64,000 nt of DNA from an uncultured bacterium (GTDB lineage: Bacteria > Patescibacteriota > Minisyncoccia > Phycocordibacterales > CAIRYW01), in NCBI GenBank assembly GCA_963766885.1, contig CAVYBO010000002.1, positions 365,521-429,520 of the forward strand, written 5' to 3'. Positions within the stretch are counted from its first letter, which is position 1. Every line of letters starts with the position of its first letter. The notes beneath the pieces were generated by a model. The model was not told the origin of the DNA. It made no database searches and saw nothing but the letters and a program-made list of their open reading frames with translations. The translations under genes and the position numbers were made by a program. Shown here piece after piece: positions 6,637 through 60,678 of this stretch.

Positions 6637-7581
6637 TTAACTTAATAAATTACCCTCCTTTTTAACCGAATTTCTTATTGGAATTATAGCATAAAAGGTA
6701 GTGCCCACGTTTTCAGTAGATTCAAAGCGGATTTCACCGCCAATGGCCTGCAAAACAGAATGTGTAAGATAAAGCCCCAGACCGTTTCCATCCGATGACA
6801 GGTTGAGGGCGTTTTTGGCGCGATACATTTTGCTGAAAATTTTTGACATTTCCTCTTTTGGAATTCCGATTCCCGTATCGCTTACGGCAATGCATATTGT
6901 TTTGCTGTCTAGGACAGAAAATGAAACCGTAACCTTGCCTTTGCGGTTGGTATATTTCAGGGCATTTGAAATAAGGTTCTGGACAACTATTCTAAGCAAT
7001 TCCGGATCCACAAGCGCAATAGGCAGTTTTTCCTTTTCCTGAAATGATATGGCAATTTCCTTTTCCACCGCTTGCGGGCGAAAGTCTTCAGCAATTTTTT
7101 TACAAAGGACCTCTATATCAGTTTCCTTGGGTTTGATAGCCAGCTTGCCAAGCTCAACCCGCGAGACATTGAGCAATGAATTGACTAGCTTGATCATTCT
7201 TTCATTGGCTTCATAAATGGACTGCGCATATTGATCCCTTGATTCTGAATAAAGATTTTTCGAATCCAAGAGAAGCTCTGTATACCATTTGACCGCAGTT
7301 GCCGGAGTCCGCAATTGGTGAGAAGCAATTGAGACGAATTCTGTTTGCGATTTCTCAATCTCTTCCATATCTATTTTGTTTTGGCGGATTCTTTTGGAAA
7401 TTAAATAAATTATTATCAAAAAAAGAATTATTACGACACTTGCTAGTTGTACTATTATGTCCAAAGGATCAGCGCCCTTGTACATAACCATCACAATCGA
7501 AGCGTAAGCAGAAACTGCAGCAAGTAAAATAGCAACTGCCGCAAGTTTTCTAATATATGAAAAAATCGACGAAGAGTTCAT
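6637..7581 (-). CDS. sensor histidine kinase
   Basis: It has N-terminal transmembrane helices, an H-box (SHQLRTPATAV), a G1 box (DTGIGIP) and a G2 box (GNGLGLYL). Confidence 0.85.
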   Translation of the reverse strand: MNSSSIFSYIRKLAAVAILLAAVSAYASIVMVMYKGADPLDIIVQLASVVIILFLIIIYLISKRIRQNKIDMEEIEKSQTEFVSIASHQLRTPATAVKWYTELLLDSKNLYSESRDQYAQSIYEANERMIKLVNSLLNVSRVELGKLAIKPKETDIEVLCKKIAEDFRPQAVEKEIAISFQEKEKLPIALVDPELLRIVVQNLISNALKYTNRKGKVTVSFSVLDSKTICIAVSDTGIGIPKEEMSKIFSKMYRAKNALNLSSDGNGLGLYLTHSVLQAIGGEIRFESTENVGTTFYAIIPIRNSVKKEGNLLS

Positions 7582-7621
7582 GAAATAATTGTATCATTTA
7601 GATACCTCAAGAATAAATAAT

Positions 7622-7695
7622 GCGCGCCCTCGTGGACGCTGTTGGAACCAGAATAAGAGAACACAACGGGTATATTTTCATTGCAGACCTGAAAG
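7622..7695. repeat. 74-nt intergenic repeat, copy A (diverged at a few positions)
   Basis: It reads gcgcgccctcgtggacgctgttggaaccagaataagagaac...cattgcaga and is shared with 8779-8852 and 9935-10008. Confidence 0.9.
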
Positions 7696-7711
7696 AAAAA
7701 ATAATTCTAAA

Positions 7712-8080
7712 CTAAAAAATGTCGGTCACTCGAGACATTGCGGTTTGGTCCATCTCCGCATCATTATAATTATCAATGTGGGTCCCGATGCACAGCAACA
7801 CAATAACGGTTCCTTTTACAGCAAACCACATTCTGGGAAACTGGTTTGGACGTAATCCAGAATTAGGTACCACAAGCTCAATCTTCCACATTGTCCAAAT
7901 AGCATTCTGTGTTATACGATGTAATTTTGCAGGAGCAATAACTTGTTTAGGGTTTGTGGGATTAAATTGCACTTCGCACAATCGTTGAAATATAGATATA
8001 CCATCATCAATTTGTGAAAACCGCCGCTTAAATGCGGCGATTTCTTTTTGAATACCGTCGTGATAGATAAACTCGATCAT
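7712..8080 (-). CDS. hypothetical protein, possible toxin partner of the upstream Panacea-domain protein
   Basis: It is a 122-aa ORF overlapping the upstream gene by 4 nt. There is no motif match, so the toxin role is inferred from context only. Confidence 0.4.
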   Translation of the reverse strand: MIEFIYHDGIQKEIAAFKRRFSQIDDGISIFQRLCEVQFNPTNPKQVIAPAKLHRITQNAIWTMWKIELVVPNSGLRPNQFPRMWFAVKGTVIVLLCIGTHIDNYNDAEMDQTAMSRVTDIF

Positions 8081-8577
8081 AAATCACTAAAATCAGTACC
8101 ACGATAGAAAGCAAGTTCATACGGGATTTCTTCTCTTAACTCTGTTCCAATGTAAGGAGCTTCGGCGTGAGATAATTCCTCTAACTGTTTACCGTTGAGA
8201 TGACCATACCTCAAAACAATTCTGTCGAGCATTTTTTTTTCTTCTTCATCAAGAGATGATGGTCCCGCGTCTTCAACACAACGATAAACTTCCGTAGGAT
8301 TATATCCTTGGCTACCATCAACCCTTTCAACAGTAATGGTTTTTTTCTTTGCCATATCAGCAGTTACTTCATCAAGCGCAATTGGGAACGGCCCCATTGG
8401 AAGCGCGCGATATACATCTCCAGTTATTGATTTCTGGTTTTTTTCATAAAAATCAAAATCAGCAAAATATAACAATTTCGCTAATTTTTTCTTGCCTCGC
8501 ACTTCACCACCTAATTTTTTACACAAATAAGCAATGGTACTCTGATACTTTTTTTGATTTGAAGTAGATATCACCAT
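8077..8577 (-). CDS. Panacea (DUF4065) domain protein, antitoxin-like
   Basis: KLAKLLYFADFDFYEKNQKSITGDVYRALPMGPFP matches the Panacea/SocA-type core (KLxKLLYFAD...GP). Confidence 0.55.
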   Translation of the reverse strand: MVISTSNQKKYQSTIAYLCKKLGGEVRGKKKLAKLLYFADFDFYEKNQKSITGDVYRALPMGPFPIALDEVTADMAKKKTITVERVDGSQGYNPTEVYRCVEDAGPSSLDEEEKKMLDRIVLRYGHLNGKQLEELSHAEAPYIGTELREEIPYELAFYRGTDFSDL

Positions 8578-8778
8578 ATATATAATTATTATAACAGATT
8601 GGGGAGCACATCAATAAAGACGCTATCCCCACCCTTATTATTACGATAAAACAAGGATATTTGATGCTAAAAACGAAAAACACCCATATAGGATGTCTTT
8701 CACGTTTAGTATACATATTTTATAGAGAAAACTGGCTATATGTCAATTTGAAAGGTACCCCTTTCGGGGCTTTTTCTT

Positions 8779-8852
8779 GCGCGCCCTCGTGGACGCTGTT
8801 GGAACCAGAATAAGAGAACATAACGGTTATATTTTCATTGCAGATTTGAAGG
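8779..8852. repeat. 74-nt intergenic repeat, copy B
   Basis: It is identical to copy C over about 74 nt and is preceded by a cccctttcgggg hairpin. Confidence 0.9.
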
Positions 8853-8967
8853 AAAAGATAAATGAAAATATAAATACCAGATTTTAAAGACGAAAGGCAC
8901 CCATTTAGGATGCCTCTCACGTTTAGTACAGAATATTATATATGAAACTTTTGATAACTAAAGTGGA

Positions 8968-9882
8968 TTAAGAACTAACACCACCTCCAGTGATTGTGAA
9001 ATTAACCGAATTGCTGGTTGTGCCGTTGCTTGTTACAGAAACCTGATAGACACCAGAAGCAGAATTACCAACAAAAATATTTGAGAGAGTGAAGATAAGT
9101 TGGTTGCTATCAACTATTGGTTGACCAACGAGCCATCCTACTACTTTGCCATTTTGACTAAAGTTCACGGTACTGTTTGTGCTAAAGCCACTACCATAAA
9201 TTGTTACCTTTGTACCAGAAGTCCCAGAAGTTGTTGACAGGGAGGATATAGATGGTTGAGTTGAAACTGAATTACCTACAACTTTTAATGAATAAGAAGC
9301 ACTCGTACCTAAACTGTTTGTAATATAGAGATTATAATTTCCAGCAAGTAGGGCTGGGCTATCTGGTACAGCAAGATTTAAAGATGTTCCATTTGCACTT
9401 GCCCACTCTAGATAAGATGTATTTCCCGAGCTAGAAACAAGATACACGTTAACTATATTGCTTAAGTTTTGTCCATACACATTATCAGTAGATGTTGCAC
9501 CGAATGTATTTGATAGGGATGTAATAACTGGTATAGAAGAGGACGTAGTTTGTGTTGAGCCAGAACCCAATACCCCATCTGCATTACAATGAGGAGGATT
9601 GGTTGCACCGTTATAACAAGCCGCTGGAGTTGAACCCTGCTGTGCAAGTAAAGTTTGCAACTCTGCTTCAAGCTGTTGGAGAAGTTGTGTAATGAGCTGA
9701 ATAATTTGCTGTTTTGTAGAAGCCGCAGTAGAAGCACTTACACTTTGTGCAAACACAGGAGAGAAAACTGCTAAAGACAGAAGTCCGACACCCAAGAAAG
9801 AAATATATTTTTTCATATTTGATAATAATTTAGTAATGTAGTAATTATACACTACTGCCCTACAAAACATATCTCGGTTCAA
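8968..9882 (-). CDS. secreted Ser/Thr-rich surface protein
   Basis: It has a signal peptide (MKKYISFLGVGLLSLAVFSPVFA), a Q/L-rich helical segment and an S/T/N-rich low-complexity region. Its 5' ~190 nt are nearly identical to those of 13306-14865. Confidence 0.6.
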   Translation of the reverse strand: MNRDMFCRAVVYNYYITKLLSNMKKYISFLGVGLLSLAVFSPVFAQSVSASTAASTKQQIIQLITQLLQQLEAELQTLLAQQGSTPAACYNGATNPPHCNADGVLGSGSTQTTSSSIPVITSLSNTFGATSTDNVYGQNLSNIVNVYLVSSSGNTSYLEWASANGTSLNLAVPDSPALLAGNYNLYITNSLGTSASYSLKVVGNSVSTQPSISSLSTTSGTSGTKVTIYGSGFSTNSTVNFSQNGKVVGWLVGQPIVDSNQLIFTLSNIFVGNSASGVYQVSVTSNGTTSNSVNFTITGGGVSS

Positions 9883-9934
9883 GTCCCTAAATGGTGTGAA
9901 CTTTTTATCCTTATTTTACTTAACAAAAACCGAT

Positions 9935-10008
9935 GCGCGCCCTCGTGGACGCTGTTGGAACCAGAATAAGAGAACATAACGGTTATATTTTCATTGCAGA
10001 TTTGAAGA
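9935..10008. repeat. 74-nt intergenic repeat, copy C
   Basis: It is identical to copy B and is preceded by caaaaaccgatgcgcg, a junction also found at 14931-14950. Confidence 0.9.
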
Positions 10009-10037
10009 ATAAGTGTGAAGCGATTACAATGTAGTAT

Positions 10038-10664
10038 ATGAAAACTTTTGCTTTTATTGATGCATCAAACTTATTTTATGGAGGAGAGAAAAGTCTCGGC
10101 TGGAAAATTGATTACAAGAAACTTTTGGAATACTTGAAAGAAAAATATAGTGCAGAGAAAGTTTTTTACTTCGGTGGCGTTGAGATACACGACTTTCCAT
10201 ACGACTACCAGACAGAAGATACGGTGCCGATAGAAAAGCTGGACAAGCATCTTGCAGATTTGCTGAAAAACAAAGGAGAAGAACTTGATGAAGCAACTAT
10301 CTTGCTCATTGGCAGACATCTGAAGAGGGTGCAGTTTTACAGAAAGCTCCAAGAGTTCGGTTATACCCTATTTCTTAAACCAGTAAAGCTATACGACCAA
10401 GATGATGGAACCACAAAAAGAAAAGCTAACTGCGATGTTGATATGGCTTTCCACTTGATGAAAGAAAAACATAATTTTACCAGAGCCGTTGTTCTATCGG
10501 GAGATGGAGACTTTCTGCCAGTGCTGAAACACCTCAAGGAAGTTGGCAAAGATGTCTTGATATTAGGCAGAGGTCCAAGAACAGCAAAAGAAATAAAACA
10601 ATTTGCAGGAGATAAGTTTTTAGACTTCACTCGTCTTCAGCACAAGCTATTTTTTAATAAATAA
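10038..10664 (+). CDS. NYN-domain (LabA-like) protein, putative RNase
   Basis: It has an AFIDASNL N-terminus and a conserved acidic core (VVLSGDGDF), typical of NYN/PIN-like domains. Confidence 0.65.
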   Translation: MKTFAFIDASNLFYGGEKSLGWKIDYKKLLEYLKEKYSAEKVFYFGGVEIHDFPYDYQTEDTVPIEKLDKHLADLLKNKGEELDEATILLIGRHLKRVQFYRKLQEFGYTLFLKPVKLYDQDDGTTKRKANCDVDMAFHLMKEKHNFTRAVVLSGDGDFLPVLKHLKEVGKDVLILGRGPRTAKEIKQFAGDKFLDFTRLQHKLFFNK

Positions 10665-10743
10665 AACAGACGGCACCTGCGAAAGATGCCAGTCCACGTT
10701 TAGTGCATTTAGTATATACGATATTTGGCGTATGTAAAGTGCA

Positions 10744-11432
10744 TTAAAACTCCTGGACCATAGGTATATCGCTTACAAAATTCTCAACCTTTTTGGTTAC
10801 CGTTTTTGTATTACCATGCTTTAAAAGCCCAATGTAATATTGCACCGTCTCGGGCTTCCCTGCTTTGTTTTTGATATTTCTAAACATTCTTTTTTTGGTG
10901 ACTGTTCTAATAATCCTGTTGTCCGGAAAATGCACCCACCCCAGAAAATCAATACCACTTCTGGATGAACATCTAACGACTCGTCAATTTTAATGCCGAT
11001 TTGTTTTGCCATTTCTTTAGTAAATTTTTTACCAATCTCGCTATGAAAATAGCCGAGCGTACGACAAATATCAATTCTTTCTGTTTCCGAAAGAGATTCC
11101 CATACGTCCATCATCATATCGCCCTCAATATATTCATACCCATACATTTTTGGTTTTTCGGAAACAAAAATTACACGAGGTATAGGAACAGAAAGACCTA
11201 TTTTATACAGTTGTTGAATAACGACAGCTTCTATCGCCAAATCATTTTGTTCTTGCAACTCTTTGTCGTTTCCTTGTTCTTTGACAATATACTTACTCTT
11301 GTCAGAAGTTTCTATATAATAAGCATTGTTACAATAGCCTTTGCCTTTTAATACAAACTTTGTAATTGCTTTACGTAAAAGTTCTTGAATTTTAACTTTG
11401 AGTTCATCTTCAGTGGCTGAATTATTTTCCAT
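10744..11432 (-). pseudogene. aminoglycoside/choline-kinase-like phosphotransferase, frameshifted
   Basis: It has a kinase N-lobe (KGKGYCNNAYYIETSDKSKYIVKE) and a Brenner-like DVHPEVVLI motif. The reading frame breaks near 10935-10960 and continues as IDFLGWVHFPDN in another frame (ORFs 10821-11432 and 10744-10935). Confidence 0.4.
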
Positions 11433-11444
11433 ACTAAAAATAGT

Positions 11445-11570
11445 ATCAGGTTAGAACTGAAAAGTCTAAGGGAAATAAGGATTTATTGAAGAAATCTACT
11501 GATGGGCGACGTAGTAGAGGATGTTAGAACTGTTTTTGAGAGGTTGAATGATATGAGTATTTATATTCCT
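11445..11570. repeat. ~125-nt repeat, copy 1, abutting the start codon of the phosphotransferase pseudogene
   Basis: It shares two identical blocks with 13113-13245: tatcaggttagaactga (17 nt) and tgatgggcgacgtagtagaggatgttagaactgtttttgagagg (44 nt). Confidence 0.85.
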
Positions 11571-12112
11571 AACTTGTCAGCCATCAAAATATCGTAACCA
11601 ACCATAACCCTGTCTTCCTTTTTGATTCCAAATTTTTCTAGAAACGAGAAGAGTTCATTGAAGACAACTTCATCATCTTCATCAGACATTTTTTCCACTT
11701 CTATGAAATCTCCCAATCCTTCTACTTCATCAATACAGATTTCATAATTATTAAAATTTGCTTTTCTTCTTTTCTTGTTTAGCTCCATAGCTTTTTTATA
11801 ACCCATAAGTTCAATCATTTCAGAGGTAATTTTTGCATCACTAACCACAACTTCTTTTTCCAATTTTGATAGATTATTTTTCATTGAACCTTGTGGCTTT
11901 TTTACGGTAAAAAGAACTTTATCTTTCGTAACTCTAATCCTTGCAAACACAGCTCCATCTGGATAATCGGCATATTTTTCAGAATAGTTTATGAAGACAG
12001 AATCATTTTGTATGACTTCAATACCAAAAGGAATCCCCTCTTTTTCAAAGGTTTTAATGAGATTTTCCTTATCTTGAATTTTTGCTTTTACCTCTATTTC
12101 TTTTATTGGCAT
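11561..12112 (-). CDS. CYTH-domain protein (class IV adenylate cyclase / triphosphate tunnel metalloenzyme family)
   Basis: It has the N-terminal EIEVKAKI signature (ExExK), downstream R/K residues, and the expected ~180-aa size. Confidence 0.65.
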   Translation of the reverse strand: MPIKEIEVKAKIQDKENLIKTFEKEGIPFGIEVIQNDSVFINYSEKYADYPDGAVFARIRVTKDKVLFTVKKPQGSMKNNLSKLEKEVVVSDAKITSEMIELMGYKKAMELNKKRRKANFNNYEICIDEVEGLGDFIEVEKMSDEDDEVVFNELFSFLEKFGIKKEDRVMVGYDILMADKLGI

Positions 12113-12121
12113 AATAAATTT

Positions 12122-12667
12122 TTATTTTTTAATATCAACTAAAATAAATTTAACAACTTCTTCTGAAGAAAATTCTGTGGTATCAAATACTTTTCCTAGG
12201 TCATACCTGTTTTCTTTCCAAGTTTTCAGGTTATTTTCAATTCTTTCTTTTGTTAGGGGTATTTTTCCTGGAGTGTCTGGCCTGACGTGTGCCCTTTCCC
12301 TTAATACTTCTATTGGGGCTTCTAACTGATAGAAATGTAAATCTGTTCTAAATTCATTAGCTAGGTTTATATATGGCTCAACATATTCTTTTTTCCAGAA
12401 TCCCTGTTCTATTAGTACATTGCAACCCTGTTCAAGAAATGTTTTTGCCATTGAAAGCATTACTTTACTTATAAGACCATTATCTTCATTATTTCTCTCA
12501 AAATCAGAAAGAAACCATTTGATTTTATCCATACTGAGTAAAGCTGTTCTCGGAAGTTTTGGATGAAGTATAGAAGCGATTGTAGTTTTACCAGCACCCA
12601 TTGGTCCTTCTAGAATTATTACAAATTGCTTTTTCATATTAGCGGTTTTATATTTTCTCTTATCCAA
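12122..12667 (-). CDS. P-loop kinase (AAA_33 / zeta-toxin / chloramphenicol-phosphotransferase-like)
   Basis: It has a Walker A motif (GPMGAGKTT), is about 180 aa, and has a small lid region. Confidence 0.6.
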   Translation of the reverse strand: MDKRKYKTANMKKQFVIILEGPMGAGKTTIASILHPKLPRTALLSMDKIKWFLSDFERNNEDNGLISKVMLSMAKTFLEQGCNVLIEQGFWKKEYVEPYINLANEFRTDLHFYQLEAPIEVLRERAHVRPDTPGKIPLTKERIENNLKTWKENRYDLGKVFDTTEFSSEEVVKFILVDIKK

Positions 12668-13104
12668 GCACCTTTCTTTTCCTTGTATTCTTCGCGACTC
12701 AAGCCAGAAAGACCTCTTTTAAATTCTTCGTATCTTTTTCTTAATTCTTCATTTCCACGAAGCACTTCAATAATTCCCCTATGCTTATCTATATTATTAT
12801 TTTCTGGAGACATTATTTGAACGGCTACCTCAACATTTTCTACCATTATTTTTAAGAAAGAAGTTTCATCCACTACAGGACCTTGTCTGTATCCGTGTTG
12901 CACAAGAATTTGAGAATCTTCTTCAATATGTTCACTTATGACCATTATGTCTAGTTCAGGTCTACCAGTCATAGGTACAGCCATAGCTCCAACAGCTTCA
13001 ACGTGTGAATCTGGAAGTAGAGCTTTTATTTCTTCTAATTTTTCTTGCTGTATGCGAAAAATTTCTTCAGATGGTTCTACTATCGTTTCAATTCTATTTT
13101 TCAT
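12634..13104 (-). CDS. GrpB (UPF0157) family nucleotidyltransferase-fold protein
   Basis: VEAVGAMAVPMTGRPELDIMV matches the GrpB core (HIGSTAVPGLAAKPIIDI). Confidence 0.6.
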   Translation of the reverse strand: MKNRIETIVEPSEEIFRIQQEKLEEIKALLPDSHVEAVGAMAVPMTGRPELDIMVISEHIEEDSQILVQHGYRQGPVVDETSFLKIMVENVEVAVQIMSPENNNIDKHRGIIEVLRGNEELRKRYEEFKRGLSGLSREEYKEKKGAWIRENIKPLI

Positions 13105-13112
13105 ACCAAAAG

Positions 13113-13245
13113 TATATCAGGTTAGAACTGATTTTACAGCCTAAATAAAGGGTATTATTTATGAAATTCTTTGATGGGCGACGTAGTAGAGGATGTTAGA
13201 ACTGTTTTTGAGAGGAGGAATGATGCGACAATCTATATTCCGACA
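13113..13245. repeat. ~125-nt repeat, copy 2, abutting the start codon of the GrpB gene
   Basis: See copy 1. The two copies are direct repeats flanking the CYTH / kinase / GrpB trio. Confidence 0.85.
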
Positions 13246-13305
13246 TTTTACCCTATACCTGAACTCACTAAATATTAGATATTAGAACCAATTTAAATAA
13301 TTAGA

Positions 13306-14865
13306 CTAACAGGAATACTTACATTGAGTAGGTGTTAAAACTGAAAGATAAAGCAAATTATTAATTGATACCCCATCATTACTTACTCCAACGCTTACAT
13401 TTCCGTAGCCATAGGAAGCCCCTAGATTAGAAACAGTAAAAGTTAAAGTGGTGCCATTACTAGACACTGATGTCGGTGTAATTTTTTGTCCAGTAAGACC
13501 ATTGATATATATCGCTGTTGAACCATTAAACCCAGAGCCGGTTATTGTAATGTTTGTTGACCCATTGAATGGAACCGTCGTTGTTGATAATGAATATATT
13601 GGAGGATTTGTTGAACTTTGATTTTGTCCTGGGTTGCTAATAGTAAAGTAATTATCACTGTAATCAAAAGGTCCTTCAGCCATCATACTTTGTGGAGGAT
13701 AACCCTCTATTAAAAATTTAAACTGATTTTGATTATCAACGTTTTTTAATGTATATGGACCTCCTGAATAGTTTTGAATATAAGCACTTAGCGATACATT
13801 TGGAATATTCCAGGTGTAGCTTCCAGTATTGTTTGTAGTCACACTTTGGTCAGGTATTACTGCTTGATCCTCATTACCAGCAACTAAGGTAATTCTGACT
13901 TGTGAATAAGCGGAGTTAAAAGCTGGAGATGCATTCCAAGTTATATTGTAAGTATTTCCTTTAATTAAGTTCTCGCCTCCATTAGGTGAAGTAATTGTAA
14001 TAGATGGGGTTTGATTTTGTGTTGAACCAGAAACTGTAAAAGGATACTGATTACTCTTTAATCCATAAATATTTTCAACCTCAACATTGTATTGTCCTGG
14101 GAGTGTGCTGTTTGGAACTGAAAATGAAAACTGGGTATCGCTTGTGGGTTCCCCAGAAGGATTATTTGTTGAAACGTCTGTAATAACAGCACCAGTAGAA
14201 GCATTTAACAAATGTATTTCAATTCCACCATTAACAGAAAATCCTGTTCCATAAACCGTTATAGAACTTCCCATACCAAACTTTGTGCTGTCAACATAGG
14301 CAGTATTTGGAGAGATTGAAGTTATCGTAGGTGCTACTGATGTAGGTGTTCCAGAAATTATTGAGAAAATGCCGCTTTGAGCGCCTACCTCTCCACCTGG
14401 ACTCAATGCTCCGCAATTTCCAACAGCAACAGAATAAGAACCACTTGGTATACTTGAATCAACTATCCAAGAATAATTACCACTGTTAGAAATAGCGTTT
14501 GCTATTGTTTTAACTGAAGTATTATTTGAAAGTAGATTGATTGAGATATTTGGACAAAGTAAATTAGAAGATGTCCATGTAATGTTGTATGTCTGGCCTG
14601 CTGTTAATTGACTTCCTGCAGTTGGACTAATAACAGTAATGGAAGGTTGGGTTGAAGTTGTTGTGGTTGTCGTCTGAGTTGAACCTTGCTGTCCCAACAA
14701 AGTCTGCAACTCCGCTTCAAGTTGTTGGAGAAGTTGAGTTATAAGCTGAATAATTTCTTGTTTAGTAGAAGCTGCAGTAGAAGCACTTACACTTTGAGCA
14801 AATACTGGAGAGATGACAACAAGAGAAAGCAAACCGACACCGAGAAGAGAAATATATTTTTTCAT
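13306..14865 (-). CDS. secreted Ser/Thr-rich surface protein, paralog of 8968-9882
   Basis: It has the same signal peptide and QQLEAELQTLL module. It has a long S/T/N-rich C-terminal region ending in CKYSC. Confidence 0.6.
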   Translation of the reverse strand: MKKYISLLGVGLLSLVVISPVFAQSVSASTAASTKQEIIQLITQLLQQLEAELQTLLGQQGSTQTTTTTTSTQPSITVISPTAGSQLTAGQTYNITWTSSNLLCPNISINLLSNNTSVKTIANAISNSGNYSWIVDSSIPSGSYSVAVGNCGALSPGGEVGAQSGIFSIISGTPTSVAPTITSISPNTAYVDSTKFGMGSSITVYGTGFSVNGGIEIHLLNASTGAVITDVSTNNPSGEPTSDTQFSFSVPNSTLPGQYNVEVENIYGLKSNQYPFTVSGSTQNQTPSITITSPNGGENLIKGNTYNITWNASPAFNSAYSQVRITLVAGNEDQAVIPDQSVTTNNTGSYTWNIPNVSLSAYIQNYSGGPYTLKNVDNQNQFKFLIEGYPPQSMMAEGPFDYSDNYFTISNPGQNQSSTNPPIYSLSTTTVPFNGSTNITITGSGFNGSTAIYINGLTGQKITPTSVSSNGTTLTFTVSNLGASYGYGNVSVGVSNDGVSINNLLYLSVLTPTQCKYSC

Positions 14866-14945
14866 TTATTTAATTTAATACCCGACTGATAATAGGTGTA
14901 TTATACCCCCCCGTTGTTATAAACAATAACAACAAAAACCGATGC

Positions 14946-14961
14946 GCGAGTGGCGGGAATC
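14946..14961. repeat. 16-nt duplicate of the tRNA-Asp 3' end (att-like scar)
   Basis: tgcgcgagtggcggga is identical to 15117-15132. Confidence 0.8.
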
Positions 14962-15118
14962 TTTCCCTCGACTAAAATTTTCTCGTCAGAAAATTTTGTC
15001 TGGGCACCGACTCGCGGTTTTGGCTACTGCCCAAACATCGCTCCGCCGTTCAAGTACCTAAAAAAGCTCCGCTTTTTTCACTCGTGCAAACCAAAAGCCC
15101 CTTTCGGGGCTTTGTCTG

Positions 15119-15192
15119 CGCGAGTGGCGGGACTTGAACCCGTAACCTCTGCCGTGACAGGGCAGCGCTCTAACCAGTTGAGCTACACCCGC
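15119..15192 (-). tRNA. tRNA-Asp (GTC)
   Basis: It folds as a cloverleaf with a 7-bp acceptor stem, anticodon loop CTGTCAC and T-loop TTCAAGT. Confidence 0.9.
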
Positions 15193-15580: not shown

Positions 15581-16046
15581 AAAAAACTCTTTACTTTAGA
15601 ATCTATAACCAGACGACGTCTTTGTCAACAAAAAATTACTTTATGTCCCACTCTAGTCTCAAAATTTATAGAACAAGACCCCATAAGGATTCTTGGGAGA
15701 TTTTTAGTATTTCAAACTGAAGGGTCTCGGTCTGGGGTTATTTTACAAAATTTGGAACAAAATGGAACACGCCATTGGCACTTAGAAGAAGTGATATGTA
15801 CCGCATGAAAGAGCAGATCAAAGCCGAGATGGAACGGCACAAGAAATTTGAGTCAAGTTTGCTTGGAGTGAAGAGCAAAGCGATAAAGGTGGCTAATATT
15901 GATATCCGAAATTATGCCAAGTACATACTGCGTGACGGATCAGCGTTTGAGAAACGACAACTGCTGTCGTGTTTGAGAAGTAGGATACAGATGAGTAATG
16001 GACGGATTCAAATGGAGTGATTAGTTTAGCGAACAATTAACAATTT

Positions 16047-17830: not shown

Positions 17831-17847
17831 AACTTTCTTATTTTCTG

Positions 17848-17921
17848 TGCCGAAGGTGAGAGTTGAACTCACGACCTGGCGCTTATGAAACGCCCGCTCT
17901 AACCACCTGAGCTACCTCGGC
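17848..17921 (-). tRNA. tRNA-Met/Ile2 (CAT)
   Basis: It folds as a cloverleaf with acceptor GCCGAGG/CCTTCGGC, anticodon loop TTCATAA and T-loop TTCAACT. Confidence 0.85.
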
Positions 17922-18588
17922 AAATTATCGCACTAATTATACCTAAAATTTTATACTGATAATCTGAACTTCTTGATACGCTTAACCTCAACACACCATG
18001 ATAAGAATTGTGATTATCGTAAATCTTTTTACGCGATGTTTTAACATAATAAGTATTTCCAAATGAGCTAGTAGGTAATCCTAGCAAATCAGACCAAAAT
18101 TTCAAAACCAAACCAATCCTATATTTATGGATCTGATTGATTTGAACAACTGGCTTAATCCGCTTTTTTGGTATCAACAAAATTTTAATCAGATATGTAT
18201 AGATAATTTTTATCATTCTGGGATCAGAATTTACAAACATAAATCTGCTTTCCGTCTTAGCACCCTCCGCCCAATAAAGTGCAGCACTCACAAGCTCCAA
18301 CTCTCGTCTTGATATTTTTTTAAATTTATCCATTCCTTCTTTTTTAAAAAAATCAACCCTCTCTTGTTTTTTCTTTCTATTCCTGTCAGCCCCAATGATT
18401 CGTCCTCTATTTCTTCCGTCAATACTATTTTGAATTAAAATTTCTTTTTGCTTTTGAGTCAAAACAACCGAACGAGACCAGAGACTTACGGTACTTTTGG
18501 AAATATTCAAATGTTTTGCAATAGAAGGCATACTCATACCCTTTTGCCTGAGTTTCATAACTTTATTTTTTAATATAAAATTAGACAT
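17899..18588 (-). CDS. HTH-domain protein, possibly a degenerate LAGLIDADG-like homing-endonuclease fold
   Basis: It has an N-terminal HTH (MSMPSIAKHLNISKSTVSLW). The C-terminal half has a LYWAEGAK...FMFVNSDPRMIKIIYTYL pattern reminiscent of LAGLIDADG modules. Its 3' end overlaps tRNA-Met by about 22 nt. Confidence 0.35.
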   Translation of the reverse strand: MSNFILKNKVMKLRQKGMSMPSIAKHLNISKSTVSLWSRSVVLTQKQKEILIQNSIDGRNRGRIIGADRNRKKKQERVDFFKKEGMDKFKKISRRELELVSAALYWAEGAKTESRFMFVNSDPRMIKIIYTYLIKILLIPKKRIKPVVQINQIHKYRIGLVLKFWSDLLGLPTSSFGNTYYVKTSRKKIYDNHNSYHGVLRLSVSRSSDYQYKILGIISAIICRGSSGG

Positions 18589-42013: not shown

Positions 42014-42155
42014 AAAAGACTGATTCTGATATATTTTATATCAGAATCTGGCTTTGGGACGCCGATTCGAAAGACGCAGACGCGACGGCGTCGAGCCGGG
42101 GTCGCAGAAATTTTCAGCAGAAAATCATCTGTGACCGAATCCCACTGTGATTATT

Positions 42156-42245
42156 GGAGAGATGGATGAGTGGTTTAAATCAGCAGTTTACTAAACTGCC
42201 GAGCCTTAACAGGCTCCGAGGGTTCGAATCCCTCTCTCTCCGCCA
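42156..42245 (+). tRNA. class II Ser-like tRNA with an unusual anticodon loop (TTACTAA, nominal anticodon ACT); CCA is encoded
   Basis: It has acceptor GGAGAGA/TCTCTCC, D-loop GAGTGGTTTAA, anticodon stem GCAGT/ACTGC, a long variable arm, T-loop TTCGAAT and discriminator G followed by CCA. Confidence 0.65.
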
Positions 42246-53476: not shown

Positions 53477-53497
53477 CTATGCGTGTGGAGGGGCTCG
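53477..53497. repeat. 20-nt duplicate of the tRNA-Ile 3' end (att-like)
   Basis: tatgcgtgtggaggggctcg is identical to 53618-53638. Confidence 0.8.
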
Positions 53498-53619
53498 GTC
53501 ACAGATAAATTTCTGCTGAAATTTTCTTCGACCCCACCTCGCGCCGTCGCGCTCCGGCTTTCGAGCCGACTAACGCTTTGCTTCGCAAAGCTAGTCAGCG
53601 CATACTCGCTTCGCTCGTA

Positions 53620-57437: not shown

Positions 57438-57761
57438 ATGAACAACTTTCAAGATTTACTAAAAAAAATAAGAAATAAAGCTGACCTGACTCAAGAAGAT
57501 TTAGCAAAAGCTCTTGGAGTTTCAACTGTACTTATTTCTATGATTGAAACGGGACAAAAACAAGTTTCGAGAAATTTTATTGAAAACCTAGCTGAAAAAT
57601 TATCAGTTCATCCTAGTTCAATCACACCTTTCTCGTTTATTGAAAAAGATATGGATATCAAAAAGCTTTCAGCTCTTGAGCGAAACTTAATTAAAGCTGG
57701 AAGTAAATTCCAAGATTATTTAATTACTACGAAAGCGAAAAAACTAAGAGAGTATGTCTAA
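57438..57761 (+). CDS. XRE-family (Cro/C1-type) HTH transcriptional regulator
   Basis: It has the HTH LTQEDLAKALGVSTVLISMIETGQ. Its stop overlaps the RT start, indicating translational coupling. Confidence 0.75.
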   Translation: MNNFQDLLKKIRNKADLTQEDLAKALGVSTVLISMIETGQKQVSRNFIENLAEKLSVHPSSITPFSFIEKDMDIKKLSALERNLIKAGSKFQDYLITTKAKKLREYV

Positions 57762-58764
57762 CAACAAGCGCTACCCGAACATCTCTATACGAAGTAAAAA
57801 CGAAATTGCAAAACGTATTTCGTCATCCTCTTTTTCTAAAAATGAAGCGTTAGATTTAATTAATGATGTTATTAAAAATTTTGACAGCTATTGGTATGAC
57901 AGTAAACGTTCCGAACCTGAAAAAAATAAATATGTAAGAAGCGCTGCAAAATCTCCTAAACTTAAAAAGCTTCTTGAGCTTATAAATGCAAAAATCCTTA
58001 CTCCGTATGATTATTTAATACCAGAATTTATTTATGGAGGAATTTCAAGAAGGAATAATATTCAAGCCGCTTATCACTTACTCGGCAACCAGCGAAATCG
58101 CACATTACTTAAGTTAGACGTGCAAAGCTTTTTTGAACAGATTACAAAAGAAAGGGTTTTCCACTTCTTTAATAATAAATCTCAATGCACTGTCGAAGCA
58201 TCAAATTTACTTGCTAAGTTCTGTTGTGTACCACGTGGTCCTAAAAATTCAGGGTCAACTGATATTATTCTTGCACGTGGCTTCGCAACTTCTTCTAGAC
58301 TTGCTGTATGGTGTAATCTCGATACTTTCGAACATTTGAATTGGAAAATTAAAAAGAAACTAAAAGGACACGACGCGCAAGTAGCAATATATGTCGACGA
58401 CATAGGAATTAGTGCAAGCAAAGTAAGTATTGAACAAATGGAAACTGCAAAAGAATTGGCTATAAATATATTGGAGAAAAGTGATTATAATCAATCTTTA
58501 CCCGTACATAGAGATGCTCGGAAAAACAAGATTATTCAATTTAATAAAGGTGCTGAACACTTAGGAATAAAACTTGGTAGAACCAAGTTAACACTTGGTA
58601 ACAAATCACGATCAAAAATAGATAAAATCAAAGAAGCAATCAAAGAAGCGGAAACAGAAAATGAAAAAAATACTTTGAGAGAAAAATATAAAGCTCATCA
58701 TCGCTATAGACAACAAGTAAAGAATATCGCGGTTATTAAAGATATAAGAAAAAAATATGACTAA
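57754..58764 (+). CDS. reverse transcriptase (compact, retron/defense-RT-like)
   Basis: It has RT motifs: YGGISRRNNIQAAYHL (motif 2, NAxxH-like), LLKLDVQSFFEQI (motif A), VPRGPKNSGS (motif B region), IYVDDIGIS (motif C, YxDD) and HLGIKLG (motif 7). Confidence 0.75.
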   Translation: MSNNKRYPNISIRSKNEIAKRISSSSFSKNEALDLINDVIKNFDSYWYDSKRSEPEKNKYVRSAAKSPKLKKLLELINAKILTPYDYLIPEFIYGGISRRNNIQAAYHLLGNQRNRTLLKLDVQSFFEQITKERVFHFFNNKSQCTVEASNLLAKFCCVPRGPKNSGSTDIILARGFATSSRLAVWCNLDTFEHLNWKIKKKLKGHDAQVAIYVDDIGISASKVSIEQMETAKELAINILEKSDYNQSLPVHRDARKNKIIQFNKGAEHLGIKLGRTKLTLGNKSRSKIDKIKEAIKEAETENEKNTLREKYKAHHRYRQQVKNIAVIKDIRKKYD

Positions 58765-58822
58765 AAATATTATAAAAATACTTAGTGCGCTAGCATTGAT
58801 TAGTCTCATCTTTTTGTACACT

Positions 58823-59947
58823 GTACTTCCCCCATTTCATCAGACACTAACCTTGTTAGCTGAATTGTATTCTCGAGCCGACGAAAGTGCAAATTGCACG
58901 GGTGACATTTTGAGGGCGGTATGAATCCTGGTGTTGTTGTAAATGTAAATTGTTTGGTAAATAGCGAACACCAGCTCTCCCAATGTTTTGAATCGGGAAG
59001 AATCCCCAAGATCAATTTTGAATTTGTCGTAGAAAGATTCCTGGTACCCATTCTCCCACGGACAACCTGGAGCAGAACGAGAAATCAATACCCCGACGGT
59101 CTGCAGCGCCTGAATGAACACCTCCGAGTTGTATTCACTGCCGTTGTCAGAGTGGAAAATTTTTGGTCTGGGATTATTTTGAAGAGCCGACATGAATGAT
59201 GCTAAAACCAATTGAACAGCATGGGTGGTGTATACTGACAACCCAACAATTTTTCTGGTGAACAAATCTTCGACTGTAGCCACATAGATGGTTTTGTTTT
59301 CAAAGGGTATGCGGGTGAAGTCTGTCACCCAGATATGATTTTCATATTGGGTAAATAACTTTGATATTCTTCGATTTTTTCCATCTTCTACCACGTCTGC
59401 GATATGCCTTGATACCGAAAAGTTTCATCACTCGTTCAATCGGTTTGTGGTTTCTTTTGAGGGCAAGGGCGATGCGTGGAGAACCATATGAAGGATGCTC
59501 TCTGAGAACTTCTTCAATCTGACATTTTAGTTCCCAATCTTTGTCAGGTTTCTTTGGTTTGTAGTAGAGAGTGCTGCGGGAGATCCCAAGCTCTCTGGCC
59601 CGAAGAGTTTTGGGAGTCTCACTATTTTCTTTCAATTCTTTTTTTGGGTTTCTGAGAGCTTTAGAGTAATTTCTCCAACTAACTGAAGCAGTTGAGCATT
59701 TTCTCGCTTGAGTTTAATTACCTCTGAAAGAGTTGGCTGACCTTTGGTTTTCTTGGCTATCCACCCATATATGGTGACATCGCTGATGCCATGCTCTTTG
59801 GCTGCTTGGACTACACTGATACCATCATTCTTGATTCTGTTAATAATCTGCTCCTTTATTTCAGGGGCTATTTTTTGTCTTTTCATATGCTTGTATATTA
59901 GCTTCTAATTATACAAGGTTGGTGTATGAAATTTGGGGGGAGGGCCA
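58823..59947 (-). mobile_element. IS3-family insertion sequence with a degenerate orfB
   Basis: Its imperfect terminal inverted repeats are tgtacttcccccatttcat...ccttgt and acaagg...atgaaatttggggggagggcca. orfA (59632-59886) is an HTH transposase. orfB is split (59342-59635 and 58840-59394) and carries the DDE motifs HSDNGSEY and PWENG. Confidence 0.75.
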
Positions 59948-59972
59948 TTGCTTGATGATGGGTACATATTAC

Positions 59973-60428
59973 TTAGAAAGATTCAGTAAAGTCAGCAGGG
60001 TTAAAAATATCAGCAAAATCTTTTGTTTGTCCGCAGAGTTCTGTATTTTTTAGTTGTTCTTTTGAGAAAAACTCTAGCTTCTCACATTCTTCTGACGGAG
60101 TAAAATCAAGATTTTCTAATTCTATTCGGTAAGCCACCACAAAGGAATAATACCAACCTAATTTGCGCGCATTGTTCTCAAATCTGTGTGGCCACACGTA
60201 CACTGGGGAGTCTGATATTTTTGTAACTTTTAATCCCATCTCTTCTTTTATTTCTCTTTTGAAACCAGATTTTATGTCTTCACCAAAATCTAGACCTCCG
60301 CCCGGTAATTCCCATTTTCCGCCCAATTCTTTTGATTCAAGGGCTAAAAGAACCTTACCATCTCTAACGCAGAGACCTTTGATCGTAACTCTATAGAAAT
60401 TGTCTGGGAATCTTTCCGAGTGTTCCAT
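59973..60428 (-). CDS. NUDIX hydrolase
   Basis: It has a Nudix box: GGGLDFGEDIKSGFKREIKEEMGL. Confidence 0.7.
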   Translation of the reverse strand: MEHSERFPDNFYRVTIKGLCVRDGKVLLALESKELGGKWELPGGGLDFGEDIKSGFKREIKEEMGLKVTKISDSPVYVWPHRFENNARKLGWYYSFVVAYRIELENLDFTPSEECEKLEFFSKEQLKNTELCGQTKDFADIFNPADFTESF

Positions 60429-60678
60429 GTTAGTAGGATTAGTATACCAAAACCAATATTGTTTTATAGCTTTGCTCCTTTGTTTTTAGCGTATATACTT
60501 ATTTCACAACCAAATATTCCGAAGACCTAACCCTTGAAAACCTCAAGGCACGGTCACAAATCGACGTGAATAAAAAACCTATCATTAGGGCGTTCACGTC
60601 GTTATACAGGGAAACTTGTATAGGAGCTTCGGCTCCCCTAGTGGTAGGCTTTTTGTTTCTCCACTAGGACACACGATT

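Follow-up and report, generated by a model that had tools for sequence, protein, structure and literature searches.

Within a stretch of 64,000 nucleotides (nt) from contig CAVYBO010000002.1 of an uncultured member of the Patescibacteriota (GenBank assembly GCA_963766885.1, forward-strand positions 365,521 to 429,520; the whole stretch is referred to here as the window, and positions are counted from its first letter), two genes for secreted proteins lie on the minus strand as parts of a gene array that starts beside a tRNA-Asp gene. Gene A (8968 to 9816) encodes a protein of 282 amino acids (aa) and gene B (13306 to 14865) encodes one of 519 aa; both open with the same 63-codon N-terminal module (9628 to 9816 and 14677 to 14865, minus strand), and both are preceded by the same 18-nt sequence, here called J, which abuts either a conserved repeat (D2) or a sequence matching the 3' end of the tRNA. 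With their tiny genomes and a presumed life attached to other cells, bacteria of this kind raise the question of how they vary their exported surface proteins, which gives the locus its interest. The original prediction held that cassettes had moved or been exchanged by recombination at a common junction, diversifying a surface protein. In our analysis, J does look like a recombination boundary, but one at which whole genes, not C-terminal cassettes, would be moved.

Because MKKY begins all of its homologues, gene A most likely starts at the ATG at 9816; the extent first given for it (8968 to 9882) is that of a mechanical open reading frame (ORF) opened by a TTG codon. The announced stretch of about 190 nt common to the 5' ends of the two genes is present as a 190-nt direct repeat (9627 to 9816 and 14676 to 14865), at 83% rather than over 85% nucleotide identity. 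Among the first 63 codons of the two genes, there are 37 identical ones, 21 with synonymous changes only, and 5 that change the amino acid (58/63 residues are the same), while the 189 nt that follow codon 63 show an ungapped identity of 34%; beyond the module, the two proteins retain weak domain-level similarity only. These are the only copies of the module that tblastn finds in the window (E of ~1e-32), and neither tblastn nor a self-repeat search of the window returned fragments of the module or C-terminal domains that lack a promoter. By the method of Nei and Gojobori, the two modules differ by 0.82 synonymous substitutions per synonymous site (dS) and 0.066 nonsynonymous substitutions per nonsynonymous site (dN) over the 63 codons, with similar values for the comparison with a related protein, P0002, and the longest run of identical nucleotides is 23 nt. 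Judged by its sequence, the module is old and under strong purifying selection, and, given this dS and the shortness of the longest identical run, there has by the same measures been no recent exchange or homogenization of the 5' module.

An exhaustive HMMER search with the 63-residue module recovered only 14 representative proteins out of 1.84 billion, and in all 14, which are 119 to 519 aa long, the module occupies residues 1 to ~63. Besides the products of genes A and B, these are P0003 (258 aa), which apparently belongs to the same genome as gene A; P0002, which comes from the same sample as the window; and ten more distant members. Searched against genome contigs, the module profile hit Sphingobacterium signal peptides only, and no sister genome was found. 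An identical copy of gene B is present on one contig of the Logan collection (L001; related contigs are numbered likewise), and exact-protein look-ups of gene B, the histidine kinase, the SocA-like protein, and the NYN protein of the array led only to short contigs of sample ERR11630394 that end in repeats; for gene A and P0003, these look-ups gave no record.

Read by eye, the module alignment shows MKK, a hydrophobic run, and AFA or VFA followed by Q in all 14 members, without a lipobox cysteine, so that the leader reads as a predicted Sec-type signal peptide with a signal peptidase I site between AFA/VFA and Q. A short spacer of Ser, Thr, and Ala then leads into a helix of three heptads whose hydrophobic a and d positions (I39, I42, L46, L49, L53, and L56) are the most conserved columns of the alignment. 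The original description of the shared part as a signal peptide plus a helix is thus borne out; the case that would have spoken against the original reading, namely, that there were no further members and a similarity confined to the signal peptide, was not what we found, as the family has 14 members and the helix lies beyond the signal peptide. No Pfam family matched the 63-aa leader with its coiled-coil helix.

Behind the module, each of the 14 clusters carries a different immunoglobulin (Ig)-like C terminus. In gene B, Kre9_KNH (2e-13), Big_7, and IPT/TIG Ig-like domains all score over the Pfam cutoffs. Gene A has no Pfam match, but its AlphaFold2 model (mean predicted local distance difference test score of 74) places a helix at residues 34 to 60 after the signal peptide, followed by a disordered, Cys-containing linker (61 to 90) and two Ig-like beta-sandwich domains; the best Foldseek matches of the model in the PDB are tandem Ig-like domains (E of ~1e-7), including bacterial adhesin and S-layer domains. 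One relative bears the NCBI name "Ser-Thr-rich GPI-anchored membrane family protein." The family is mosaic: P0003 resembles gene B in the module (86%) and over the last 100 aa (80%) but not in between, and the domains of gene A resemble the C-terminal parts of P0002, P0004, and P0015. We are therefore confident that A and B belong to a modular, lineage-specific family of exported Ig-like proteins with one leader and varied heads, which confirms the original view of one N-terminal module with different C termini. The protein family itself is ordinary, though narrowly distributed. The leader would probably serve export and provide a common coiled-coil assembly or anchoring contact; differences between heads arise by domain shuffling inside the family, and paralogs with near-identical helices could coassemble.

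J (AACAAAAACCGATGCGCG) occurs upstream of A and B and at no other site in the window. In its copy at 9922 to 9939 (J2), the last 6 nt (TGCGCG) are also the first 6 nt of D2 copy 3; in the copy at 14931 to 14948 (J1), the last 6 nt overlap the tRNA-like 3' end of a structured trailer element that follows tRNA-Asp. The string CAAAAACCGATGCGCG is found exactly at 9924 and 14933, with 0 occurrences expected by chance, and the full exact match measures 18 nt. J is followed at 9934 by the third copy of the repeat that also starts at 7621 and 8778 and, at 14943 to 14958, by 16 nt identical to the 3' end of tRNA-Asp (15117 to 15132). A shared upstream motif, followed by either a repeat or the end of tRNA-Asp, had been predicted, and both sequences are indeed there; the distance of some 40 to 70 nt to the start codon given for it fits gene B (67 nt) only, the corresponding distance for gene A being 106 nt.

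The gene B promoter (14900 to 14926, minus strand) comprises a TATAAT, a G run, and the palindrome TTGTTTATAACAA, and the same layout of palindrome TTGTTnnnnAACAA, G-rich run, and TATAAT-like −10 box is common to gene B, P0002 (on L002), and P0004 (on L003, with TACAAT). Gene A has a degenerate version of this family layout with the spacing kept; its −10 box TATAAT (9844 to 9849, minus strand) was read from the sequence and aligned with gene B, L002, and L003. We rejected J as a promoter element, as its distance to the −10 box downstream is 27 nt in gene B and 74 nt in gene A. A role as a simple terminator U tract would be possible for the trailer but leaves the reciprocal chimeras described below unexplained. 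J is outside the expression unit of each gene; since it lies upstream of both promoter and start codon, recombination there would shift whole expression units, not C termini. Between J2 and gene A, a 13-nt stretch (9874 to 9886; minus strand, GGGACTTGAACCG) resembles the trailer motif GGGACTTGAA and the complement of the tRNA-Asp T arm, and GGTTCAAGTCC and its complement occur once each in the window; to judge from this resemblance, the stretch may be a trailer or tRNA remnant within the gene A unit.

The second boundary element, D2, is present in three copies. Copy 1 (7620 to 7711) lies 40 nt upstream of a histidine-kinase gene (6637 to 7581) and contains a plus-strand ORF of 31 codons (MRALVDAVGTRIREHNGYIFIADLKEKIILN), copy 2 (8778 to 8868) is flanked by a hairpin that elsewhere follows tRNA-Asp, and copy 3 (9933 to 10024) is flanked by J2 and identical to copy 2 at 74/74 positions. 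All three share a sharp minus-strand end (...GAGGGCGCGCA) with complete divergence beyond it. On the plus strand, D2 carries a short ORF, (M)RALVDAVGTRIREHNGYIFIADL..., of 31 to 40 aa with variable tails, starting at the ATG within ccgATGcgcg. All five differences in conserved codons between copy 1 and copies 2 and 3 are synonymous, and differences across contigs fall mostly at third codon positions, with conservation ending after ~25 codons. No Pfam family matches the peptide, and the protein collection that we searched lacks it. D2 as a tRNA fragment or structured RNA was rejected: there is no acceptor pairing, it folds no better than its shuffles (minus-strand z scores of 0.0 to −1.1, plus-strand z scores of +1.1 to +1.4), and Rfam 15 yields no match, with chance-level hits only at E values up to 10; the way in which it varies fits the short plus-strand ORF instead. 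The start-to-start spacings of the copies are 1157 and 1156 nt, though the intervening units hold unrelated genes (a toxin-antitoxin pair and gene A, respectively), and the ORF of copy 3 is in frame with the NYN gene that begins at 10038, across a single TAG.

A 23-mer of D2 matched eight metagenome contigs, in four of which D2 lies in the same orientation near a tRNA-Met/tRNA-Asp cluster, and a profile search added second copies in two contigs (L019 and L020); a 28-mer had no match in viral contigs. Six contigs (L014, L015, L017, L019, L020, and L023) terminate within D2, and such contig ends fit a multicopy repeat. In other contigs, NUDIX genes often directly precede D2.

The tRNA-like sequence next to J1 proved to be part of a larger element. 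Between tRNA-Asp (GTC anticodon; 15118 to 15192, minus strand) and J1 lies a trailer (14944 to 15094, minus strand) whose 3' end copies the last 16 nt of the tRNA, and this stretch folds far better than shuffled sequence (z of −5). Homologous stretches follow tRNA-Asp in L018 (6100 to 6250, minus strand) and lie beside a D2 copy in L022; the three trailers align with conserved blocks (GGGACTTGAAAGGCGCAGCG, GAGCCGGGGTCGCGA, and TGTGACCGAG) and covarying stems, and a covariance model built on this alignment matches the window trailer with 144 bits. The model finds further copies after tRNA-Ile (53488 to 53593, minus strand) and between two tRNA-Ser genes (42031 to 42143, plus strand) in the window, as well as after another tRNA of L022; the two L022 copies span 1853 to 2008 and 9564 to 9719, both on the minus strand. 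Trailers are roughly 105 to 155 nt long and stand directly downstream of tRNA genes (Asp, Ile, and Ser), with an end that copies the 3' end of the preceding tRNA: over 20 nt for tRNA-Ile, over 16 nt for tRNA-Asp, and as a near-copy one base shorter for the L022 tRNA; the tRNA-Ser copy, the weakest match, shares only ~8 nt (CGAATCCC). Across the six sequences, in an alignment that was fitted to the model's own structure and is biased toward it, 92.6% of pair cells are standard and 31 of the 51 pairs change on both sides, values reached by 0/500 shuffles, and slid controls are 35 to 45% paired.

In the window and in L015 to L022, the trailer matches no Rfam 15 family at gathering thresholds, with chance-level hits only at E values up to 10; together with its covariation, this makes the element a candidate for a new family of RNA (or folded DNA). 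Partial copies of other tRNA 3' ends were found only within trailers, and there was none for the tRNA-Val beside the L011 recombinase. On this sequence evidence, the supposed tRNA-Asp fragment is no scar: it supplies the 3' strand of the helix that closes a conserved structured element. The idea of a tRNA bearing a group I intron (PMC13011429) was rejected, as the trailer is only ~150 nt long, there is no Intron_gpI match, and tRNA-Asp is intact. Right after the trailer-like element and a normal tRNA-Ser(GCT), ARAGORN reports a tRNA-Ser with the unusual anticodon ACT (42156 to 42245, plus strand).

Read along the minus strand, the array begins with tRNA-Asp, its terminator, and the trailer with its tRNA-Asp-like 3' end; then come J, promoter, gene B, five cargo genes, and D2; then J, promoter, gene A, and D2; then the hairpin, a toxin-antitoxin pair, and D2; and finally the histidine-kinase gene. 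The cargo of the larger unit (10038 to 13104) consists of the NYN gene on the plus strand and genes for a 203-aa protein, a CYTH protein, an AAA_33 kinase, and GrpB, all on the minus strand, whereas the third unit (7712 to 8577, minus strand) holds a SocA/Panacea antitoxin-like gene and a 122-aa partner. Just upstream of two minus-strand genes of this array, those for the 203-aa protein and for GrpB, lie homologous stretches of ~130 nt (11437 to 11569 and 13108 to 13241; 53-nt core, 96%), which have two occurrences of CAGTTCTAAC apiece and look like a shared promoter/operator or leader. A terminator-like module consisting of ACTAAACGTG, a hairpin, and a T run follows gene A (8865 to 8928, minus strand), with copies at 8648 to 8711 and 10670 to 10705, and CACGTTTAGT is found at these three places only in the window.

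The junctions of this array are chimeric. On the plus strand, the left flank of a junction is either J (AACAAAAACCGA) or the hairpin CCCCTTTCGGGGCTTT, which is present twice in the window, as a terminator-like hairpin directly 3' of tRNA-Asp (15098 to 15113) and as an exact 16-nt counterpart beside D2 copy 2 (8758 to 8773); CCCCTTTCGGGG, from this hairpin, likewise has two occurrences only. The body that follows is D2 in some junctions and the complement of the tRNA-Asp 3' end in others, and each of the four possible pairings is realized, with TGCGCG as the overlap: hairpin and tRNA at 15098 to 15132, J and tRNA-like end at 14931 to 14958, J and D2 at 9922 to 10007, and hairpin and D2 at 8758 to 8851. 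Neither flanks nor bodies occur in the 64 kb beyond those junction sites. Apart from their ends and from the promoter with the module, the gene A and gene B units have nothing in common. The two copies of J match at 18/18 positions and D2 copies 2 and 3 at 74/74, though half of the synonymous sites of the adjacent genes have changed, and, because of this difference, the array ends are, as far as sequence can tell, younger or far more constrained than the cargo, which is typical of recombination sites.

Similar arrangements were seen elsewhere. L019 reads tRNA-Asp, a 125-aa gene, D2, a NUDIX gene, and D2, and L020 reads NUDIX, D2, a 213-aa membrane protein, and D2. In L018, tRNA-Asp, terminator, and trailer are followed by one membrane-protein gene, D2, and tRNA-Thr; when its D2 is joined to the posttrailer sequence, two 10-bp arms in perfect inverted repeat result (GGTTCCAACA and TGTTGGAACC, 28 nt apart), and the shared CGCGCA lies slightly 3' of their center. 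In L022, tRNA-Asp is met by a convergent, intact gene for a 542-aa serine recombinase whose stop codon lies within the tRNA end; the 6.5-kb insertion that this gene opens ends in D2, and only then come the terminator and displaced trailer that normally follow tRNA-Asp. By its layout, L022 looks like a complete insertion with D2 as its far end.

On the side of tRNA-Asp that faces away from the array, the window holds a remnant of a large serine recombinase (15793 to 16014, plus strand) comprising the C-terminal 74 aa, with 85% identity by tblastn to the recombinase of L002, on which P0002 stands tail to tail with an intact copy of this recombinase. The preceding region (15674 to 15760) resembles the region upstream of intact recombinase copies (an 18-nt match to L010, the rest by eye). 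The recombinase family is abundant (at least 8000 matches, the best 120 at 71 to 80% identity), its intact copies on L010 and L011 stand head to head with genes for TIG or Kre9_KNH secreted proteins, and the L011 recombinase abuts the 3' end of tRNA-Val. The distance from tRNA-Met to tRNA-Asp is 2.65 kb here, and the two are nearly adjacent in L018, a comparison that suggests a second insertion between them. Between two tRNA-Met genes, a gene at 17899 to 18588 (minus strand) overlaps the 5' part of tRNA-Met (17847 to 17921) and encodes a 229-aa protein with an N-terminal resolvase/transposase-type helix-turn-helix. A separate cluster at 57754 to 60636 comprises a 336-aa ORF (57754 to 58764) with a reverse-transcriptase-like N terminus and an ORF (58840 to 59193) resembling a fragment of a DDE transposase/integrase core, both read by eye, and a LOOT RNA (60524 to 60636, 72 bits).

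In summary, we lean, with slightly better than even confidence, toward an explanation that combines a modular exported-protein family with serial site-specific insertion at a tRNA-linked site. On its own, the proposition that serial site-specific insertion built the array strikes us as about an even call, and it is based on the anatomy of the junctions and on four to five related loci. Genes A and B would each come first in a unit of their own, the two units being neighboring insertions; circles carrying a joined D2/J site would enter serially at the tRNA-like 3' end by crossover within CGCGCA, leaving the newest unit nearest the tRNA. Because the array order fits such serial D2/J insertion, the 18-nt motif would be the unit-proximal arm of a recombination site. 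The leading candidate for the enzyme is a serine recombinase acting in trans, and the expected empty site would have the 3' end of the trailer joined straight to the hairpin flank (AGAAAAAGCCCCGAAAGGGG).

Several observations weigh against serial insertion. The sharp end of D2 is also the start codon of a short conserved plus-strand ORF, which alone could explain the boundary. The inverted-repeat symmetry of the L018 type is matched at only 4 to 6 of 10 positions in the window and is absent in L019 and L022, and J has been found in this genome only. In L015, the D2 core follows core-type genes (ClpB-like and glyoxalase-type) with no obvious insertion; P0004 lies in a core-gene context without D2, so that the family is not tied to units. 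No recombinase gene was found among the ORFs of the array (7.6 to 15.1 kb), no D2 is present in L010 or L011, two loci of the abundant recombinase family, and the L022 recombinase is only 32% identical to that family. Finally, in short-read contigs, which break at the repeats, we saw neither an empty site nor a circular junction nor any strain polymorphism.

Some of these points would suit a plain segmental duplication, an account that we regard as unlikely yet deserving of real weight. A block of J, promoter, and ancestral gene would have been copied by unequal or microhomology crossover between the CGCGCA of the trailer end and that of the D2 end, followed by divergence and by gain and loss of cargo, with no recombinase involved. 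Unequal crossover at the shared 6 nt would give the D2/J junction, the units lack an integrase, D2 may be an ordinary small gene, and the D2 core of L015 stands beside core-type genes. However, for a duplication dating back as far as the genes (dS of 0.82), the identity of J (18/18) and D2 (74/74) would be unexpected unless these were separately constrained, and the two units are alike only in ends and promoter plus module. The chimera of hairpin and D2 is left unexplained, as are the D2-bounded one-gene units with unrelated genes (L018, L019, and L020) and the recombinase-bearing insertion of L022 that ends in D2 with a displaced trailer.

The remaining accounts would give the repeats a more specialized role. 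Programmed surface variation, in which the 5' module and the junction would serve as handles for swapping C-terminal cassettes into an expression site, could appeal to the abrupt drop in similarity after codon 63, to the mosaic makeup of family members, and to the recombinase gene that adjoins family members elsewhere. But A and B each have their own promoter, start codon, and signal peptide, promoterless partial copies are missing from the window, and the module copies, which are 17% different with a dS of 0.82 and no identical run above 23 nt, are not homogenized; the junction, moreover, lies upstream of the promoter rather than between module and variable part. We therefore consider this account largely refuted and highly improbable, and with it falls the original proposal of C-terminal exchange, for which the junction is on the wrong side of the promoters, the module copies are too old, and silent cassettes are lacking. 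A classical integron, with D2 as attC and the units as cassettes captured by an IntI tyrosine recombinase, seems to us barely credible. The mostly one-gene units, split by a near-identical repeat at the 3' side, and the presence of a toxin-antitoxin unit do recall one, but D2 forms hairpins no more readily than shuffled controls, whichever strand is taken, the units have promoters of their own, and the array abuts a tRNA-like end rather than an attI/intI pair; no tyrosine recombinase was apparent among the 63 ORFs (≥110 aa) inspected, with a Pfam scan that covered the ORFs between 5.9 and 18.6 kb.

If serial insertion is nonetheless the right explanation, these findings suggest that whole self-promoted surface-protein genes were added at a tRNA-linked site, the leader helix staying fixed and the Ig-like heads differing. 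We speculate, tentatively and with more doubt than conviction, that some small-genome bacteria related to the candidate phyla radiation (CPR) possess an undescribed, integron-like gene-capture platform. Its units would be short, often with one self-promoted gene that frequently encodes an exported or membrane protein, and each would end in the 75-nt D2; a serine recombinase acting in trans would capture them, and they would be stacked at the 3' end of a tRNA or of a structured RNA mimicking one. In that case, the surface-protein paralogs would count as cargo and the 18-nt J as a functional recombination arm. In the literature that we searched, neither such arrays nor the recombinase family are described for CPR or Patescibacteria. 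If D2 and the trailer are working sites, they would make up a compact gene-capture system with new site types and possibly new pairs of recombinase and site; if the array is a frozen relic, it would be an ordinary paralog family in a decayed genomic island.

Among Ig-like surface proteins with Kre9_KNH (PF10342), IPT/TIG (PF01833), or Big_7 (PF17957) domains, gene B qualifies by Pfam thresholds and gene A by its model, but, unlike in known proteins of this kind, the leader of A and B belongs to no Pfam family and is limited to 14 protein clusters. As in the cassette systems of antigenic variation (pilE/pilS, vlsE, and msp2), a multicopy surface protein combines a conserved N-terminal part with a variable remainder; here, however, every copy is a complete expression unit, silent cassettes are lacking, and the conserved parts have diverged too far for conversion to be ongoing. 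Chromosomal integrons are cassette arrays that include toxin-antitoxin units, and the array shares with them one-gene units stacked at one site with near-identical repeat ends on each, a toxin-antitoxin unit, and a newest unit that is presumably nearest the insertion point; it differs in lacking IntI, attC hairpins, and attI and in the self-promoted nature of its units.

In the attP/attB systems of large serine recombinases, such as those of phiC31, Bxb1, and A118, partner sites share little, as they do here (6 nt), and the recombinase gene lies at the element end by the junction, as in L022 and L011. The sites of such systems span about 40 to 50 bp, with imperfect inverted half-sites around a central crossover, and the rebuilt L018 site resembles them: it measures ~48 bp, has inverted arms of 10 bp, and carries CGCGCA slightly 3' of the center. 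The distance from a GGTTC motif to the junction is 29 nt in D2 and 24 nt in tRNA-Asp, which we take to recall the 5-bp offset between attP and attB half-sites. In contrast to those systems, the window has no intact recombinase, and half-site symmetry is lacking in the window, L019, and L022.

The closest described behavior, on our comparison, is the tandem accretion of tRNA-targeted integrative elements known from the tycheposons of Prochlorococcus and from Islander-type islands (bioRxiv 10.1101/2020.12.28.424599). As with tycheposons, the proposed insertions lie at the 3' side of a tRNA, later ones would push older units inward, and the locus shows degraded recombinase genes, scattered tRNA-like fragments, and small, variable cargo; a large serine recombinase is used by a minority of tycheposons (bioRxiv 10.1101/2020.12.28.424599). 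Unlike tycheposons, the units described here carry no recombinase or replication genes, and two of them measure only 1.16 kb; their host, to judge from its gene content, looks like a small-genome bacterium of the Patescibacteria/CPR. The proximal target (except in L022) is not the tRNA as such but a structured trailer imitating its 3' end, and at the distal boundary a conserved 75-nt D2 with its short ORF takes the place of a displaced tRNA fragment. The 16 nt that repeat the 3' end of tRNA-Asp (14943 to 14958) belong to the conserved trailer and stand on the proximal, not the distal, side of the units. The array as such is moderately unusual; what is new here is unit ends of new kinds, namely, D2 and the structured tRNA trailer, on units without a recombinase of their own.

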